Assembly: GCA_949296605.1 (NCBI GenBank)
Contig: CASFPB010000039.1
Span: 7,766 to 71,765, forward strand
DNA: 64,000 bases
From: an uncultured bacterium
GTDB taxonomy: Bacteria > Bacillota_I > Bacilli_A > RF39 > UBA660
Direction of reading: 5' to 3'
This document shows positions 22,674 through 32,802 of the stretch, piece after piece (position 1 is the first letter of the stretch; the number at the start of each line of letters is the position of its first letter). The translations under genes were made by a program, and so were the position numbers. Below the pieces are notes generated by a model that worked only from the letters and a program-made list of their open reading frames with translations, was not told the DNA's origin and searched no databases.

Positions 22674-25600
22674 ATGGAACAAATATTTTGGGATAACTTC
22701 AAAAATACAGATAAATTATTAATTTTAGATTATGTAGGTAGGCTGCCACTGATATACCAAAAAGCATTACAGGATTGCTATGGTGAAGATTATAATGAAT
22801 TATTAAAAAAGGGAGTTAAACTTATTGATGCCAAAAAAGCTATAAAAAAAATTAATTATTTAATTAATAATCCTAATTATTATGTGCGTGCAACAAATTA
22901 TAATTCAGCTAAAAATTTAAATGGAGAAATAACAGTAAGTGGTGGTAAGCAAAAAGAAGTATATTTAAAAGAAAAAATAAATTGTGATGAAAGCATTTTA
23001 AAAAGAATATCAATAATTTTTAGATTAAATCCAGAATTTAAAATTTTGTATAAATATTTCGGTATAAATTTAGACAAAAGTATTGATGAATTTGAATTGC
23101 CAAGAGAAGATTATGAAACATTAAAAAAACTTTATAAGAATCTTAATGATTTTATAAGTAATAAATCAATTTTAATAAGAAACATTTTAGGTTTAACATA
23201 TAGTGAATTTGTATCTTATTTTGAAAAAGAATTAACGACAAATCCAAAATTAAAAAAATTAAAAAAGCTATGTAAAAAGACCATAATTACTGAGCCTATA
23301 AACTTATTGGATATAGATGATAAAACATTTTTAAGTATAATTAAATGTATTTATTGTTTAAAACCAAATATATTAGTGAATCAAATACTTGCAAATAATA
23401 AATTTAATATTACGTTACAAGAGTTCTTAGATGCAAATGAAAAAGAAATGGATTTTATATTATCCAAAAATGAAAATACTGATGTAGGTAACACTTTAAA
23501 AAATTTATGGCAAGACGATTACACAAAATTATGTATTGATAAAAATAATGATTCTATAAACGAATTAGTAACGATATTAAATGTTCTAATTAATGATTTA
23601 TTTTCATATAGATATTTAATTAAAGTTAAAACATTACAAGAAATATTGGAAGCAACAGAAGAAGAAATAGATTTTTTAAAAAATAATTTATCAAAAGAAA
23701 CATCTTCATATAAAATTATTTCAAAAGTATTTGGAAGTAACTTTAGAGGAACAAATGAGTTAAGATATATGTTGCATGGCAAAGATAATGAAGCATATCA
23801 TAATGCATTATTAAATTTGAAATTAAAACTAAGTAATTATAGAAATGGAAAATCTAGAAAATTTAAAACATTACAAGAATTATTAGGGGCATCAGAAGAA
23901 GAAATAGATTTTTTAAAAAAATATATTAATGATAATTATGAAAAATTTGCTATTATTATTAAAGTCTTTGGGAAAGAATTAAATGGGACAAATGAATTTT
24001 ATAAATATTTAAGCGCCGAAGAAAAAGTAGCATATTCTGAAAAAATTCATATTTTAAGAATAAATTTACAAAAGTTTAGAACAGGAAAATTACATGAATA
24101 TAAAAAATTAAAAGATATATTAAATGTATCAGAAGAAGAAATAGAACACATAAAAAAATACTATCCTAAAACAACAAAAGGCTATCAAATTTTATTAAAA
24201 GTATTTGGAGAAAATTTGGATAATGATGACTCATTATACTGTAATTTATTAGACAAAGAAAAAAATTTATATCGATATACATTGCAAGCTTTAAATATGT
24301 TTTTAAAAGATGGCATTAAAAAATATAAAACTTTACAAGAAATACTTGAAGCAACAGAAGAAGAAATGGAATTTTTAAAACAAAAATATCCTAAAAATAC
24401 AAAAAATTATATTTTGCTTATAAAAGTATTTGGAAATAATTTTGAAAATTCAAATTATAATTATGACAAACTAAATGGGGACGAAAAGAAAAAATACAGA
24501 AGTGCTTTAAAATCAATAAGGAAATTTTTAGAAAAACATAGAAAAAATTTAATAAAAAATGGTAAAACATTAGCCGAAATAATAAAAATATCACCAGAAG
24601 AAATTGAATATATAAAACAACAATATCCTAAAAATACAAAAAACTATAAAATTATAGTTAAGGTATTTGGCATAGAATTAAAGGACACAAATAAAAAATT
24701 AAATTATTTAACCAACGAAGAAAGAAAAACCTACTATAACGCTCTAAATTGCTTAAAAAGATTTATTAAAAGAAGTGAAACAAAGTGTAAACCTAAAACT
24801 TTACAAGAGTTATTAAATGCAACAGAAAAAGAAATAGATTTTTTAAATAAAAAAATATCTAAAAAAACAAAGACTTATACTATATTATCAAAAGTATTTG
24901 GTAATGATTTTAAAAAAACAAATGAATGTTATGATAGTTTAACAACACTAGAAAAAAGAACTTTTTCACAGACAATAATAAGATTAAAAAGCCTTTTAGA
25001 AAAATACAGAGAAACAAAGAAATTTGATTTTAAAACACTTTCCCAAATATTAGGCGCGACAAAAGAAGAAATAGAATTTTTGATGGATGAAACAGATAAA
25101 AGTTCAAAAATTTACAAAGTGATTTTAAAAGTATTTGGAGAGGATTTTGAAGGAACTAACGAAAAGAAGTTTTTATTAAATAATGAAGAAAAAAAGACAT
25201 ATAATAATGCAATATCATCATTAAAAGCTAGATTAAAAAATTATAGGAAAAATAAAAATATTAAATATAAAACTTTACAAGAAATACTTGAAGCAACAGA
25301 AGAAGAAATAGACTTTTTAAGTGAAATTACTCCTAAAAAAACTAAAAATTATGTTGTTCTTGTTAAAGTTTTTGGAGAAAGTTTTAAAGGAACAAATGAA
25401 CTATGTGAACAACTAACTGATGAAGAGAAGGTAACTTATTTTGCAGCAATAAAATCATTATCAGTAAGGCTAAAAAAATATCGTGACAATGGAAAAGATT
25501 ATAAAACCTTGCAAGAAATACTAAATGCAACAGATGAAGAAATAGAATATCTAAATGAAATTTATCCACAAAATACAAGAAGTTATCAATTTTTGGTAAG

Positions 25601-26081
25601 TATGTTTGGAATTGATTTTAGAAATATAGGAAATTTGAATAAATTATCTAGTGAAGCAAATATGTTGTTAAATGATACGATAGCAATATTACAAACATAT
25701 TTATGTATGCAAAGAGAAAATACGAAAGATGGAAATTTACAACAAATCGAAACAGAAGGCCCTGTTGAAATTTTAACAAGTAAAGAATATACAACGGTGG
25801 AAACACCATTTAAACATCCATTTTTTAAAGAATTTTTAATATTACTACCTATTGAATATCAATATATTACAGCATTAAGATTAGGTTTAGTATATGATGA
25901 AAAAATTCATTCCATTGAAGAATTAGCGGAAATATTTAATATTGATATTGAAACCGCAAGAAAAAGATGTTTAAAAGGAATAAACATATTTATATTAATA
26001 ATTGAAAAATATAAAGAATTGTATAATCAAAACATCCCCAATATTGATGCGCTAATAGAAAACATAAAATTAGTTTTATAG
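22674..26081 (+). CDS. Giant helical-repeat protein (1135 aa), sigma-less paralog: FW-x-NF linker module, degenerate repeats, 9 clear ~75-79 aa repeats, C-terminal sigma-region-4-like HTH
   Basis: Uninterrupted 3.4-kb ORF with RBS aaagga. The repeat consensus is KTLQEILxATEEEIxFLK..Y.IL.KVFG..F..TN.....L..EEK..Y..A...L...L..YR. The C-terminus reads TPFKHPFFKEFLILLPIEYQYITALRLGLVYDEKIHSIEELAEIFNIDIETARKRCLKGI. Confidence 0.85.
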   Translation: MEQIFWDNFKNTDKLLILDYVGRLPLIYQKALQDCYGEDYNELLKKGVKLIDAKKAIKKINYLINNPNYYVRATNYNSAKNLNGEITVSGGKQKEVYLKEKINCDESILKRISIIFRLNPEFKILYKYFGINLDKSIDEFELPREDYETLKKLYKNLNDFISNKSILIRNILGLTYSEFVSYFEKELTTNPKLKKLKKLCKKTIITEPINLLDIDDKTFLSIIKCIYCLKPNILVNQILANNKFNITLQEFLDANEKEMDFILSKNENTDVGNTLKNLWQDDYTKLCIDKNNDSINELVTILNVLINDLFSYRYLIKVKTLQEILEATEEEIDFLKNNLSKETSSYKIISKVFGSNFRGTNELRYMLHGKDNEAYHNALLNLKLKLSNYRNGKSRKFKTLQELLGASEEEIDFLKKYINDNYEKFAIIIKVFGKELNGTNEFYKYLSAEEKVAYSEKIHILRINLQKFRTGKLHEYKKLKDILNVSEEEIEHIKKYYPKTTKGYQILLKVFGENLDNDDSLYCNLLDKEKNLYRYTLQALNMFLKDGIKKYKTLQEILEATEEEMEFLKQKYPKNTKNYILLIKVFGNNFENSNYNYDKLNGDEKKKYRSALKSIRKFLEKHRKNLIKNGKTLAEIIKISPEEIEYIKQQYPKNTKNYKIIVKVFGIELKDTNKKLNYLTNEERKTYYNALNCLKRFIKRSETKCKPKTLQELLNATEKEIDFLNKKISKKTKTYTILSKVFGNDFKKTNECYDSLTTLEKRTFSQTIIRLKSLLEKYRETKKFDFKTLSQILGATKEEIEFLMDETDKSSKIYKVILKVFGEDFEGTNEKKFLLNNEEKKTYNNAISSLKARLKNYRKNKNIKYKTLQEILEATEEEIDFLSEITPKKTKNYVVLVKVFGESFKGTNELCEQLTDEEKVTYFAAIKSLSVRLKKYRDNGKDYKTLQEILNATDEEIEYLNEIYPQNTRSYQFLVSMFGIDFRNIGNLNKLSSEANMLLNDTIAILQTYLCMQRENTKDGNLQQIETEGPVEILTSKEYTTVETPFKHPFFKEFLILLPIEYQYITALRLGLVYDEKIHSIEELAEIFNIDIETARKRCLKGINIFILIIEKYKELYNQNIPNIDALIENIKLVL
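23628..25740 (+). repeat. Nine in-frame tandem coding repeats, period 225-237 nt
   Basis: Unit starts (K-T-L codons) fall at 23628, 23865, 24102, 24327, 24564, 24795, 25032, 25269 and 25503. A 47-nt perfect direct repeat occurs at 24321-24367 and 25263-25309. Confidence 0.9.
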
Positions 26082-26093
26082 AAAGGAGGATAA

Positions 26094-29000
26094 ATGAAAA
26101 ATAGTATTTTATTATATCAGCTTATGCAAGAATATGGTTTTTATAATAAATCAAGTGAATTTTATATTGAAATTATAAAAAAATATGAAATAAATGGCGA
26201 AGTTAATAGACAAGACATAATAAAAATTAGAGAAAGTATATTAAAAAAAATAAAAGGGGATATAAAGAATTTAAATATTGATTGGCTTATAAAGTTGTTC
26301 TTAAAAGTTAAAACGTTAAGTGATTTATCAAAGTTATTAAATTTATTAAATAAATATAATATAGTTTTAGATTTTAGTTTAATTGAAAATTTAATAAATA
26401 ATAATTCGCAAGTTGATGCTTTAATATTTAACTTTTTAAAAAAAGGAAAAAATATAACAATTTCATATATAGATAGAATTAGTGATAATGAGTTAGTAAC
26501 TGAACTTTTAATTGCCTATGCAACTATAAAAAATATCTTAACAAATGAATCAGAAAAAGAAGCAAACGAATATTATGAAGATGAAACTAAAAATTCTAAA
26601 ATTGATGATTCAATAGGCATGTATTTAAAAGAAATAGGTAGCATACCATTATTATCAAAAGAAGAAGAACTTGAATTATTTAAAAAGATAGAAATGGGCA
26701 GTAAACAAGCAAAAGATAGAGTAATTGAAGCAAATTTACGTCTAGCAGCTTCTATTGCCAAAAAATATTTGAACAAAGGTTTAGGGCTACAAGACCTTAT
26801 TCAAGAAGGAAATATAGGGATTATGAAGGCAGTAGAAAGGTTTGATTATAAGAAGGGATACAAATTTTCTACTTACGCAACTTGGTGGATTAGACAAACT
26901 ATTACAAGGGCAATAAGTGAACAATCTAGAACAATTAGAGTGCCAGTTCATATGAGTGAAGATATAAAAAACTTACATATAGCTAAAAATAATTTATCAA
27001 TTAAGCTAAATAGAGAACCAACTATTGAGGAAATTGCAGAAGTATTAAACATGACTTCAGATAAAGTATTAGAAATAATTAGATTTGACACAGAAACATC
27101 AACAGCATCATTAAATGCTACAGTTGGTGATGAAGATGATTCAGAGCTAGGGAATTTCATTGAAGATACTTTTTTTGAATCGCCAACAAAAACATTTGAA
27201 CAAAAAGATTTAAGTATTAGATTAAATGAAATGCTTAATGAGTTAAAAGATAGAGAAAAATCGGTTATAATGTATAGATTTGGTTTAATAAATGGAAAAC
27301 CTTATACACTTGAGGAAATAGGTATAATATTTAATGTTACAAGAGAAAGAATAAGGCAAATAGAAGCAAAGGCATTAAGAAAATTAGGTAACCCTGTAAG
27401 AGCTAAAAAAATAAAAGATTATTATGAATTTGAAGATGTTGATTGCAGAATATCAAAAGGATTTTGGAATAATTTTGCACATTATACAAAAGATATTGTT
27501 TTTTTAATAATTGATAATGATCTTGAAGAAAATTTAAAAAATGCACTATATGGAGTTTTCGGAAAAGATTTATCAAAAGTAAAAATTAAAAATTCAAGTG
27601 AAACAACAAAAGCAATAGAAGCAATTGAAGCAATTAAAACAATTTTAAAAACAAAAGATCAAAGTCAATACGAAATAACTTTACAAGAATATTTAAAAGC
27701 AACCGATGAAGAATATGAAAATTTAAAAAAGATTATTATATGTTCTTCTTACTGTGAAATATTATCAGAATTATTTGGTAGTAATTTTGATCAACCAAAA
27801 TCAGGTATAATAGCATCGCCAAGTAATGAGGCAACTTATTATAATATTGCATTTTGTTATTTAAAAAATTGTTTAAATAAACGATGCGAAGTTCTACCTG
27901 AATTTAGATTAGGAACGCTACAGGAGATACTTAATGCAAGCAAAGAAGAAATAAAATATTTAAAAGATAGCGTATTAAGTAAAACGGCTAACCGTTCTAT
28001 AATAATAAAAGTTTTTGGAAATAACTTAGATCAAATAAATTCAGGTTATTATGAATTAGAATATAGTGAAAAAAATAAATATTTTAAATCTATTTCGTAT
28101 TTAAAAAAAGAATTAACTAATTACAGAAAATTAAATTCAAGTAATAATATAACTTTGCAAGAAATACTAAATGCAACTGATGAAGAAATGTTATTTATAA
28201 AATGTAAAATTATAAATGATTCTTATTTTCAAATAATATTAAGAGTTTTTGGAAATGAATTAAATCAAACAAATAAAAGCTTTAATGAATTAAGCGAAGA
28301 AGAAAAAATAGAATATAATAAATGTATAAGAAGTTTAAAAGACAAAATACGAGGATTTAGAGTATTTAACAATAATAGAAGAAATTTGCAAAAGTATTTA
28401 AACGCATCTGATGAAGAAATGGTTTATTTAAATCAAACGTATATAGCTTCAGCAAAATTAAAAAATATTATCTATGGAATATATGGTGAAAATTTAAACG
28501 AATTTAACGTTTATTTTTACGCTAGCTTATCTGATAAAGAGTTATTTAATTATAGTTCATTTATAACAAATTTGCAAAAAAAATTAGAAAAACATCGCCA
28601 TGAGCAAAAAGATTGTAAAACTATTCAAGAACTTTTAGAACTATCAAATGAAGAATTAGAATTAATTAGACTTTATTATATAAATAAATCAGATAGATAC
28701 CAAATATTAATAGAAGTATTCGGAGAAAATTTAGACCAAACAAATAAAATAGTTTGTTCATTTAATAATCATAAAAATCAAACCTATAATAACGCTTTAA
28801 ATGATTTAAGAAAAACAATAAAAACGCATAGAGAAATAGTAGGCGTTGGAAAAACTATTTTTGAAATTTTAAATATGTCAATTGACGAATTTAATTTGAT
28901 TAAACAAAACTTTTCACAAAATTTTGCAAATTTTAATGTTTTAATAAAAGTATTTGGGGATAATTTTGATAAAACCGATGAAAACTATCATAATTTATCA

Positions 29001-29699
29001 ATTGAAGAAAAAGTAGAATATATTAAAGCATTAGAAGAGTTTACTAATTGTTTGATATCTGTTAGAACATACAAAACTAAACATCAAACATTACAAGAAA
29101 TACTGGGAGCTACAGAAGAAGAAATAGCATTTATAAAAGATAATTATCCACAAAATACAAAAAATTATGATATTTTAGTCAAAGTCTTTGGCATAGATTT
29201 CACAAATAATAATTATAATCTAACTGAATTAAATGATTTTGAGAAAGGTCAATACTACCGAGCAATAAATTGTTTAAGAAAATATTTAAAAAATTATAGG
29301 AAAGGTAAAAATAAATTACCTAAAAAAGAAGAGTCAAAATTACCAAATGATACTACTAAAATAGATAAACAAGATGACATAGAATATTTGGATGCATTAC
29401 CTGATATAAATTTAAATGAAATTAAAACACCTTTTACGCATCCATATTTTCAAGAATTTATTAATATTTTACCAGAAGAGTATCGTATTATAACTGCTAA
29501 AAGAATGGGATTAAGTGATGGTTGCATCCATTCTTTAACAAGCCTAGCAAAAGAATTTAAAATAAGTCCAAAAGAAGCTTATGATAAATGCGAAAATGGT
29601 ATAGCATTATTTATATTTATAGTTAAAACATACCAAACCACATTTAATAAAGAATTACCAATTTTAGATTTAGATATGTTATTAAAACGTCTTATATAA
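26094..29699 (+). CDS. Giant sigma-70 fusion protein (1201 aa): novel N-domain + complete SigA/RpoD-like regions 1.2-4.2 + 7 helical repeats + second, C-terminal sigma-region-4-like HTH
   Basis: Strong RBS aaaggagga, 12 nt after the upstream stop. The sigma core (nt ~26604-27427) has [77 protein letters not shown] and [28 protein letters not shown]. It is then followed by ~760 further aa. Confidence 0.88.
27675..29320 (+). repeat. Seven in-frame tandem coding repeats, period 231-237 nt
   Basis: The T(L/I)Q-E-I-L codon anchors fall at 27678, 27915, 28152, 28383, 28620, 28854 and 29088. The unit is the same as in 22674..26081. Confidence 0.85.
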
Positions 29700-30474: not shown

Positions 30475-32802
30475 ATGGATATAAGTGTGATTGTAGAAAA
30501 ATTAAGTGAAGAATTTTCTTTTTACAATAAACCATACGAATATTATTTTAAAATATGTAATGAAATATTATGTGATGATGCAAATTTAATGTATAAATTT
30601 TGTTATGAAAAAGTAGTTTTAGATATAAAAAACGATTGGAAAAGTTTAAAAATTGGTTGGTTTATTGCAATATTTAAAGAAAATTTAAATGGAATGTTAG
30701 AAATATTAACTAAATTTGGATTAGTGATAGATAATACTAATTTTAAGCAAATTATAAAAAAATATCCTGATTTTGAAAATGTTTTAAGTGATTTAGTAGA
30801 AAATGATGCTTACTTAGATGAAAATGAAACATTAAAAAAACTAATTAAATTATACTTAAGTTATACAGAAAGCAAAATGAAAAATAAACAAGATAAGGAT
30901 ATATTATTGTGGGAAGAACAATTAGAAATATTTAAGATTTTAAAAGAATTAAGTAAAGAACCAGAAAAAAATAAAACTTTCATAGCTTATTATTATGATT
31001 TACTAGTAGAGCAATATAAAAATTTTGTTCGATCCCTAATACCAAAATATGAACAAGAAAAAGTAGAATATGATGATTTAGTTCAAGAAGGATTCATTGG
31101 ATTAATTAATGCAATTAGAAATTTTGATTATACAAAGGGTTATAAATTTTCATCATATGCTTATGTTGTTATAAAAAACGTTATTAGGAAATACATAAAT
31201 AAAAACATTAGATCAATAAGAATTCCTGATTCAATGTTAAACGATTATTTTAGAATAATATATACTCAAAGAGATTATTATATGTTAAATGGAAAAGAAG
31301 CAAGCGAAGAAAAACTATCAGAAATGTTAGGTATGTCAATAGAAAAAATTAGAAATGTTTTAATGTGCTGTGAAGATACAATATCATTATATGATTCTTT
31401 GGGTAGGGGACCAGAAGAAGCAGAATATACTTTATTATGTGCAATAAAAAATGAATCGTCCCCATTACCAGATGAAATATATGAAAGAAAACAAATAAAT
31501 TTGATGATAGAAGAATTGTTTAGTGTTTTAACAGGCATTCAAAGAAAAGTAATTGAACAATATTTTGGATTTTATAATCAAAAACCTAAATCAATTCAAA
31601 ATATAGCAGATGAACTTGGTTGTTCAAGAGAAAATATAGATCAAATAAGAAGTAATGCATTAAAACGAATGAGAAAACACCTAGCTGATAAAAAGAATAA
31701 TGATTTAAATACCTTTAGTAAATTTTCGTTAAATACAAATTATTTTTGGTATAACTTTATAGGCTTTAAAAAGTCAGATGTATTAGAAGCTATAAACGAA
31801 CTTGTAAATGAAAAAAAATTAAGTGAATTAGAGCAAAAATCCTTAATTGATAGATTTGGTAAAAAATATAATTTATTAAATAAAGTAGATGAAGAAACAA
31901 TAAAAGTTGTTAGTGTATCTATAGAAAAGATAAAAGAAAAACTTCTTGAAATACGAAAACGAAAATCGATGTTAAAAACAAAGATTGAAATAGGTAGTTT
32001 AATGGATATTTTAGATGCAACGATTGATGAAATAAAATATCTTAGATCAACTAGGAAAAAAGATAGTAAAAGCATAAATTTACTTACTAGATTATTTAAT
32101 GATGATTTTTTAAGAGAAGGATTAATACCAGTTTATTTAAGTAAAACTGAATTAAGAACTTATTATTCTGCTATAAGTGCATTAAGAGAATCATTAAAAC
32201 TTTATAGAAAAAAAGAAGAAACTAAAAGATATTACTTTGGCTTAACATTAAAACAAATATTAAATATAACTACTGAAGAAATTGAATTTTTAAAAAGAAC
32301 AATTAATCCTAAATCTGCTTATTATTCAGTATTAACTAAATGTTTTGGAACTTCATTAGAAGAAGAAAATAAAAATGAAAAATTGGATGAAAAAGAATTA
32401 AAATTATTAAAAATTGCTATAAGCAAAATGGAAGTATTAATTTTTTATTATAGAGAAGAAGAAACTAAAAGACTATTAAAAATCTATAGCTATTTTAACA
32501 TGCCTGAAGAAACTAATGAAAAAGTTGTTACACCATTTAGCAACCCAAGATTTAAATTGTTTATTCAATGCTTACCTGATGAGCTACAAATTATAACAGC
32601 GATGAGAATCGGAGCTGATAATGGCGTTATTAAATCGATATTTGAAATTGCAATGTATTTAAATGAAGATGAAGAAGAAGTAAGAAGAAAATGTGAAATA
32701 GGAATAAATTTGTTTAAAACGTTAGTAAGTGAATATAAAAATGAGTATGAAAATGATTTTGAAACATTTTTAATACAAAGTAGAAAAAAATACGGTAAAT
32801 AA
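30475..32802 (+). CDS. Giant divergent sigma-70 fusion protein (775 aa): N-domain paralogous to 26094 gene + divergent sigma regions 2-4 + FW-x-NF linker + 2 repeats + C-terminal sigma-region-4-like HTH
   Basis: RBS ggggga upstream. Region 2 reads DDLVQEGFIGLINAIRNFDYTKGYKFSSYAYVVIKNVIRKYI, where the Trp dyad is replaced by VV. Region 4 reads LTGIQRKVIEQYFGFYNQKPKSIQNIADELGCSRENIDQIRSNALKRMRKHL. The C-terminus reads TPFSNPRFKLFIQCLPDELQIITAMRIGADNGVIKSIFEIAMYL. Confidence 0.85.
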   Translation: MDISVIVEKLSEEFSFYNKPYEYYFKICNEILCDDANLMYKFCYEKVVLDIKNDWKSLKIGWFIAIFKENLNGMLEILTKFGLVIDNTNFKQIIKKYPDFENVLSDLVENDAYLDENETLKKLIKLYLSYTESKMKNKQDKDILLWEEQLEIFKILKELSKEPEKNKTFIAYYYDLLVEQYKNFVRSLIPKYEQEKVEYDDLVQEGFIGLINAIRNFDYTKGYKFSSYAYVVIKNVIRKYINKNIRSIRIPDSMLNDYFRIIYTQRDYYMLNGKEASEEKLSEMLGMSIEKIRNVLMCCEDTISLYDSLGRGPEEAEYTLLCAIKNESSPLPDEIYERKQINLMIEELFSVLTGIQRKVIEQYFGFYNQKPKSIQNIADELGCSRENIDQIRSNALKRMRKHLADKKNNDLNTFSKFSLNTNYFWYNFIGFKKSDVLEAINELVNEKKLSELEQKSLIDRFGKKYNLLNKVDEETIKVVSVSIEKIKEKLLEIRKRKSMLKTKIEIGSLMDILDATIDEIKYLRSTRKKDSKSINLLTRLFNDDFLREGLIPVYLSKTELRTYYSAISALRESLKLYRKKEETKRYYFGLTLKQILNITTEEIEFLKRTINPKSAYYSVLTKCFGTSLEEENKNEKLDEKELKLLKIAISKMEVLIFYYREEETKRLLKIYSYFNMPEETNEKVVTPFSNPRFKLFIQCLPDELQIITAMRIGADNGVIKSIFEIAMYLNEDEEEVRRKCEIGINLFKTLVSEYKNEYENDFETFLIQSRKKYGK
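31996..32480 (+). repeat. Two in-frame copies of the helical repeat unit (period ~249 nt)
   Basis: SLMDILDATIDEIKYLRS...LLTRLFNDDF... and TLKQILNITTEEIEFLKR...VLTKCFGTSL... Confidence 0.7.

Follow-up and report, generated by a model that had tools for sequence, protein, structure and literature searches.

Region 4 of sigma-70 factors (hereafter sigma-4) is normally present in a single copy, and its partners are the -35 DNA element, the beta flap, activators and anti-sigma factors. Sigma factors with an additional C-terminal part are known among the extracytoplasmic function (ECF) sigma factors, where ECF41 and ECF56 carry a SnoaL-like C-terminal domain and ECF42 carries TPR. Here we analyse a 64,000-nucleotide stretch of DNA (the window) from an uncultured bacterium (GTDB lineage Bacteria; Bacillota_I; Bacilli_A; RF39; UBA660; assembly GCA_949296605.1, contig CASFPB010000039.1, positions 7,766 to 71,765), in which three paralogous proteins carry tandem copies of a 79-residue unit. 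We conclude that this unit is probably a diverged tandem copy of sigma-4 that remains collinear with its source, and that it most likely acts as a spacer or contact module. As judged from profile comparisons, the unit represents a sigma-4-derived repeat domain that is as yet undescribed, and a literature search for sigma-4 repeat arrays found no description of them.

The unit was first pointed out in an earlier note, which was made by a model from the letters of the window and which compared one peptide by eye with sigma-4. That peptide is the exact translation of positions 23628-23864 (+ strand) and corresponds to residues 319-397 of an open reading frame (ORF) of 1135 codons (22674-26081), the product of which contains nine tandem units of 75-79 amino acids (aa) each and no sigma core. 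A second ORF, of 1201 codons, encodes a complete sigma factor followed by seven units, and a third (30475-32802) encodes a sigma domain and two units. The 16 units of the first two ORFs have a mean column identity of 49%, are 26-47% identical to unit 1 and score 78-105 bits with the unit hidden Markov model (HMM). Position G35 is invariant among them and F34 is nearly so. Tandem Repeats Finder detects no array at the DNA level because the units are too diverged, which indicates that the duplications are old.

An exhaustive HMM search of 1.84 billion cluster representatives with the unit profile returned 179 representatives at E ≤ 1e-3, including 111 at E ≤ 1e-10. These relatives come from uncultured gut Bacilli, including Candidatus Onthocola, and the unit is present in 22 of the 121 genomes and 15 of the 73 genera of the host family. 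Copy number ranges from 2 to 20 over the family, with many relatives carrying 5-20 units. The dominant architecture consists of sigma region 2, sigma-4, the units and a C-terminal domain, or of the units and the C-terminal domain without sigma. Across 591 units, G35 is kept in 94% and F/Y34 in 87%. Furthermore, a sizeable subset of roughly one-third of the 179 representatives has units with a textbook region 4.1 motif, L-S-x-x-E-K-x-I-I-x-x-R-F/Y-G, and the full motif occurs in 86 units of 27 relatives. The consensus of these LRFG-type units reads TIYELLdsYSKEQVDxMLxxLSxxEKxLIxxRYGxDLxNPvxxxLTxEExxxFYxxLxPKMKKLLxNP, with a variant ...KEEvDxmLsxLSxxEKxIIxxRFGxDLxNP..., and matches of the sigma-4 HMM inside the units of relatives fall at unit positions of about 9-35. 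The window units keep only the hydrophobic pattern and the F-G (Y.IISKVFG) of the region 4.1 motif L-S-x-R-E-x-x-V/I-x-x-x-R-F/Y-G.

To avoid the bias introduced by selecting units for this motif (the motif-selected LRFG subset matches sigma-4 at 95%), we replaced that comparison with a per-protein test that includes decoys. Specifically, a unit profile was built for each of the 106 proteins with at least three units and was compared with 67 bona fide sigma-4 sequences. Significant matches were obtained for 36 of the 106 proteins at P ≤ 1e-3, for 27 at P ≤ 1e-4 and for 15 at P ≤ 1e-5, with a best value of 2.4e-8. All 36 adopt one collinear register, in which unit positions 8-37 correspond to sigma-4 positions 6-35, and many of these alignments extend to unit position 65-70 or so. 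At P ≤ 1e-3, none of the 106 proteins matched any of six decoys, namely sigma regions 2 and 3 of the same proteins, sigma-4 in reverse and three sigma-4 alignments with shuffled columns. A positive control for the profile method is provided by the C-terminal end domain that all three window paralogs share, the alignment of which matches sigma-4 with hhalign at 96.3% (E 1.6e-9). These sequence statistics support an origin of the units from sigma-4.

Similar results were obtained with pooled profiles. A 115-unit profile matches N-terminally extended sigma-4 at 96% (E 4.3e-9, 75 columns), and when searched against 177,635 distinct PDB sequences it places mainly sigma-4 chains on top, all in the same register, with a best E-value of 0.0046. 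These top matches come from unrelated bacteria (Thermotoga 1tty, 8gzg, 8x6f, S. aureus 4g6d, 7l7b, 7ckq, RpoS, FliA and Taq 1ku3) and include cyanobacterial and Firmicute SigA. The window-type units in turn match the LRFG-type units over their full length (98.4%, E 6.1e-15, 72 columns), so the chain from window unit to LRFG-type unit to sigma-4 makes the link between the window unit and sigma-4 a sound one. Pfam Sigma70_r4 and Sigma70_r4_2 are also the top whole-protein matches of several of the unit-rich relatives scanned (51 and 56 bits for P0033). However, such scores are sums of weak partial matches, and they inflate the unrelated families DUF6559, UBA_6 and MgtE_N too, so we count them as support only.

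The genomic setting offers an obvious source for the duplications, because the repeats follow a real sigma-4 in the same protein and have intact sigma-4 copies embedded next to them. The sigma-4 at residues 371-439 of the 1201-aa sigma factor is likely to represent the source type of the units. Near-intact extra sigma-4 copies with a helix-turn-helix (HTH) of normal length occur within or just before the arrays of three relatives (P0024, residues 640-711; P0111, 561-622; P0005, about 515-580). They could plausibly represent stages in the duplication of true sigma-4 into the units. The proposal of the earlier note that the arrays are duplicated, degenerate sigma-4 modules is thus supported by the transitive profile link, the clean decoys, the sigma-4 chains on top of the PDB-wide search and the embedded near-intact copies.

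Several observations nevertheless weigh against a sigma-4 origin. On present sequence comparisons, the window unit is linked to sigma-4 only transitively: it has no Pfam match at E ≤ 1 and no NCBIfam family, and per-protein profiles of the window units give P values against sigma-4 of 0.098 (winA, ORF 22674-26081) and 0.32 (winB). With hhalign, a 56-unit alignment reaches only 2% against sigma-4, and a doubled unit in any phase reaches 1.2%. The latter includes a shift by half a period. The checks foreseen by the earlier note thus give no sigma-4 match for the window's own units, either in profile comparison or, with the single-unit model, in Foldseek. Among 150 single units compared with Pfam, one matches r4 and one matches r4_2, which is noise level. 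A MAFFT alignment of all 591 units, which is gappy (112 match columns), reaches 5% against sigma-4, with a local match in the 4.1 register. Moreover, the E-values of the PDB-wide search are marginal individually, and the HTH half of the alignment between unit and sigma-4 has low posterior confidence. Structural comparison is equally reserved: with the single-unit model, Foldseek retrieves no sigma-4 and no other fold from the PDB (best E 5.8) and no match from the BFVD viral models, which lends no support to a retained sigma-4 tertiary fold.

The collinear register assigns each part of the unit after its head helix a counterpart in sigma-4 (Table 1). Unit and sigma-4 run in parallel for about 65-75 columns, with individual alignments of 52-75 collinear columns, which does not support the impression in the earlier note that order and spacing differ. 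The likeness that it drew between Y.IL.KVFG and region 4.1 holds, as the same positions in relatives read LSxxEKxIIxxRFG and match sigma-4 profiles significantly. Towards the C-terminal end, the counterpart of the 4.2 HTH is about 4-8 residues shorter than the HTH itself, and the predicted structure has a 6-residue helix and one long helix where sigma-4 has the 4.2 helix-turn-helix. The end of the tail helix, KMKKLLxNP, compares with kALrKLRxP of sigma-4. In the unit, T-R-E-R-I-R-Q has been deleted or replaced. Sigma-4 uses this segment to read the -35 element, and a loss of sequence-specific -35 reading is therefore plausible. In a greedy alignment of low confidence, the conserved head (TLQEIL or TIYELL) falls on the LGxFIED motif that closes region 3.2, and the acidic linker is missing. 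Should this match be true, the duplicated segment would comprise the end of region 3.2 together with region 4. Any electrostatic or mimicry argument about the unit has to be built on this corrected residue mapping.

Table 1 Features of the repeat-bearing locus, in window coordinates
Feature	Position	Strand	Basis or remark
Sigma-less paralog, 1135 aa	22674..26081	+	N-terminal modules (degenerate), then the 9-unit array, then the sigma-4-like HTH (ORF list, dissection)
Unit 1 of array, aa 319-397	23628..23864	+	Translation equals the peptide of the earlier note; AF2 model
Array of 9 units, aa 320-1023	23631..25742	+	In the sigma-less paralog
Head helix TLQEIL, unit residues 1-6	23631..23648	+	Extra helix, outside the confident sigma-4 alignment
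TEEEIDFLKNNL, unit residues 9-20	23655..23690	+	Putatively corresponds to sigma-4 helix 1 rather than to the recognition helix (unit, LRFG-unit and sigma-4 alignments)
SSYKIISKVFG, unit residues 25-35	23703..23735	+	Putative counterpart of the 4.1 helix with the conserved R-F-G turn at its end; relatives read xEKxIIxxRFG
Long basic tail helix, unit residues 51-78	23781..23864	+	Putatively matches the C-terminal portion of the 4.2 recognition helix
Sigma-4-like HTH domain at the C-terminus of the 1135-aa paralog	25818..26024	+	hhalign; AF2 helices at 262-330 of the 788-1135 construct
RpoD/SigA-like sigma factor, 1201 aa	26094..29699	+	Regions 1.2-4, then 7 units, then C-terminal sigma-4-like domain
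Bona fide sigma region 4 of the 1201-aa sigma factor, aa 371-439	27204..27410	+	Pfam
Seven-unit array of the 1201-aa protein, aa 529-1077	27678..29324	+	
Pair of units of the third paralog, ORF 30475-32802, aa 508-668	31996..32478	+	

The AlphaFold2 (AF2) model of unit 1 has a predicted local distance difference test score (pLDDT) of 87 and a predicted template modelling score (pTM) of 0.70, and it contains five helices (unit residues 2-6, 10-19, 25-34, 42-47 and 51-78). In a construct of three units and the C-terminal domain (aa 788-1135), each unit adopts an identical predicted fold with pLDDT values of 83-94 that dip at the unit borders, and the pTM is 0.32. These dips and the low pTM suggest that the units are independent domains arranged as beads on a string rather than as a solenoid. 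After the head helix, the helix lengths of 10/10/6/25-28 parallel the 7/11/7/26 of the C-terminal domain in the same model. With this larger construct, the top 50 Foldseek matches are all sigma factors (E 3e-3, probability up to 0.96, TM 0.18), aligned over roughly 365 columns to whole SigA chains of Thermus holoenzymes. Such matches are weak, and in this model the C-terminal domain may be what drives them, which tempers their value for the origin of the units. Solenoids of the TPR, HEAT or spectrin type were considered and rejected: Pfam gives noise (Spectrin_5 at E 0.15), the single-unit model has no Foldseek match and the multi-unit pTM is 0.32. The confident match to such a repeat family that the earlier note had named as contrary evidence was therefore not found.

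Charge is distributed unevenly along the unit. The first 20 residues, which form the head, carry a mean net charge of -3.1 and the tail helix carries +4.5, so that each unit in both arrays (23631-25742 and 27678-29324) has the character of an electrostatic dipole with an acidic head and a basic tail. The net charge of whole units ranges from -6 to +9, and the last unit in each array is the least basic. The sigma-less paralog is under purifying selection, as comparison with a 97% identical ortholog (locus L009) gives a ratio of nonsynonymous to synonymous substitution rates (dN/dS) of 0.34. In the same comparison, the units have fewer changes per residue than the N-terminal part.

Three other explanations of the unit deserve consideration. 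The earlier note had aligned TLQEIL-xAT-EEEIxFL with the 4.2 HTH, and on this basis the unit would be a permuted sigma-4 in which TLQEIL-AT-EEEIDFL forms a charge-inverted 4.2 HTH with an acidic recognition helix, making the array a DNA-blind mimic of the sigma-4 surface. The head does have a generic HTH-like residue pattern and is acidic, and for the window units hhalign indeed chooses the register that places unit residues 4-16 on sigma-4 45-57. However, the P value in that register is 0.098 for the whole unit (units of ORF 22674-26081), and although the 22-aa head alone reaches 0.0045, a decoy made of sigma region 3 performs equally well (7 versus 8 of 106 proteins at P ≤ 1e-3). The echo of region 4.2 is thus a generic HTH-like pattern, no better than chance. 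This register also conflicts with the collinear one, which reaches P values down to 2.4e-8 with clean decoys and makes EEEIDFL part of helix 1, and relatives have LSxxEKxIIxxRFG directly after the acidic helix, which is the normal order of sigma-4. The acidity noted for this segment is therefore real, but its identity as the recognition helix is not, since the true counterpart of that helix is the basic tail. Taken together, we regard a permuted sigma-4 as highly improbable.

It is more conceivable, but still unlikely, that the unit is an unrelated, lineage-specific helical repeat that acquired its RFG-type motif by convergence or chance. This would account for window units that match no family directly and for a unit model that matches no structure, and the strongest sigma-4 match spans only about 25-30 residues. 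Chance resemblance is difficult to reconcile with 36 of 106 proteins matching sigma-4 when each of six decoys matches none, with 52-75 collinear columns, with PDB-wide top matches that are mostly sigma-4, or with the fusion of arrays behind a real sigma-4 and the presence of embedded intact copies. We give somewhat less credence again to units that still bind DNA, either as an HTH or winged helix of the OmpR/PhoB type or through the basic tail, which would allow the array to read, or to wrap, extended upstream DNA. The tail helices contribute +4.5 net per unit, and the proteins end in a sigma-4-like domain of a DNA-binding type. In addition, the best match of the 16-unit window profile among PDB sequences is the OmpR-type regulator CssR (7cx5; E 0.14 over 45 columns), yet nothing in that search is significant, Pfam gives no Trans_reg_C match and Foldseek finds no DNA-binding fold, and an OmpR/PhoB winged helix (Trans_reg_C) was rejected on these grounds. 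The DNA-reading residues of sigma-4 are lost, and the acidic heads offset much of the charge, as the whole-unit values indicate.

If the units are diverged copies of sigma-4, as we favour, each would fold as its own small five-helix domain, and the array would constitute a flexible string of domains that joins the sigma core to the better-preserved terminal sigma-4-like HTH. In the sigma-less paralog, the array would join no sigma core, and the terminal HTH would be presented alone. The hydrophobic frame and the acidic-head, basic-tail dipole appear to be kept under purifying selection, whereas the -35-reading residues appear to be lost, a combination which suggests that the units most likely function as spacers or as protein-contact modules. 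The basic tails might give the units some non-specific affinity for nucleic acids, but the units would not be sequence-specific promoter readers.

A more far-reaching proposal, which we consider speculative and rather doubtful, is that these proteins form an undescribed class in small-genome gut Bacilli, in which 2-20 sigma-4-derived modules act as multivalent sigma-4 surrogates, with array length and the sigma-less paralog setting promoter choice. The modules could occupy the beta-flap or the activator and anti-sigma sites of several RNA polymerases. Alternatively, the array could serve as a ruler of tunable length, positioning the terminal sigma-4-like HTH at a distant upstream element. If true, either version would represent a new mode of regulating transcription initiation. 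Apart from this proposal, the family is of interest because sigma-4 seems to have been copied up to about 20 times, without its DNA-reading residues, and to have been maintained by selection in no fewer than 179 protein clusters, some with a complete primary-type sigma factor ahead of the array and others as neighbouring sigma-less partner proteins. Descent from sigma-4 and the helix mapping also turn an anonymous repeat into a testable one, with possible retention of the flap-binding face, possible competition with real sigma-4 and possible effects of array length.

The remainder of the locus is consistent in layout with that of its relatives. The 1201-aa sigma factor is found by Pfam Sigma70_r1_2, r2, r3 and r4 and by NCBIfam RpoD at 374 bits, which is under the equivalog cut-off, and a canonical 369-aa RpoD is encoded elsewhere in the genome (1.16 Mb, 23% G+C). 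The 1135-aa sigma-less paralog has no Pfam or NCBIfam family above cut-off. Degenerate units lie upstream of the clear arrays at 22674-23630 (aa 1-319 of the sigma-less paralog), 27450-27677 and 31780-31990. These units (LPLIYQKALQDCYGEDY, LNPEFKILYKYFGINLD and LSELEQKSLIDRFGKKY) look more 4.1-like than the canonical ones, but singly they score 4 bits against sigma-4, which is not significant. Likewise, 4.1-like modules just 3′ of sigma-4, such as LSELEQKSLIDRFG in the third paralog, reach 4 bits only and are not significant alone. Syntenic loci in related MAGs (L010-L015) contain two or three tandem paralogs, both sigma-bearing and sigma-less. In several of them these paralogs adjoin a divergent sigK-like sigma gene of 230-237 aa and precede an unannotated ORF with the size of polA (852-877 aa). 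In one relative of the same genus (G115:C25), about 20 units are detectable in a single 2095-aa open frame, indicating that array length varies widely within the genus.

Among known systems, the unit most resembles sigma-70 region 4 itself (PF04545 Sigma70_r4, PF08281 Sigma70_r4_2; 1KU3, 1TTY). The two are alike in helix order and in a 4.1 helix ending in F/Y-G; diverged members of the unit family keep the full L-S-x-x-E-x-x-I-x-x-R-F-G. A proline comes after the turn, and in many members the last helix is basic and ends in K-x-L-x-x-P. In contrast to the single copy of sigma-4, the units occur as 2-20 tandem copies with an extra head helix and a shortened HTH, the window units match no sigma-4 model, and the predicted unit fold has no Foldseek match to sigma-4. 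A second point of comparison is the C-terminal sigma-4-like domain, or ‘second region 4’, which resides in the same proteins, likewise appears to derive from sigma-4 and has a similar four-helix length pattern. Unlike the units, it is single-copy, terminal and equipped with an HTH of normal length, and comparing it with unit profiles yields no match (0.7% and 2%). By sequence it is a separate lineage of sigma-4 descendants. The ECF41, ECF56 and ECF42 factors are similar in being sigma factors with a C-terminal addition that probably modulates activity, but their extensions are unrelated folds attached to ECF (sigma2-sigma4) factors. In the window, a group-1-like sigma factor instead carries an array apparently built from its own region 4, and the sigma-less paralog has the array alone.

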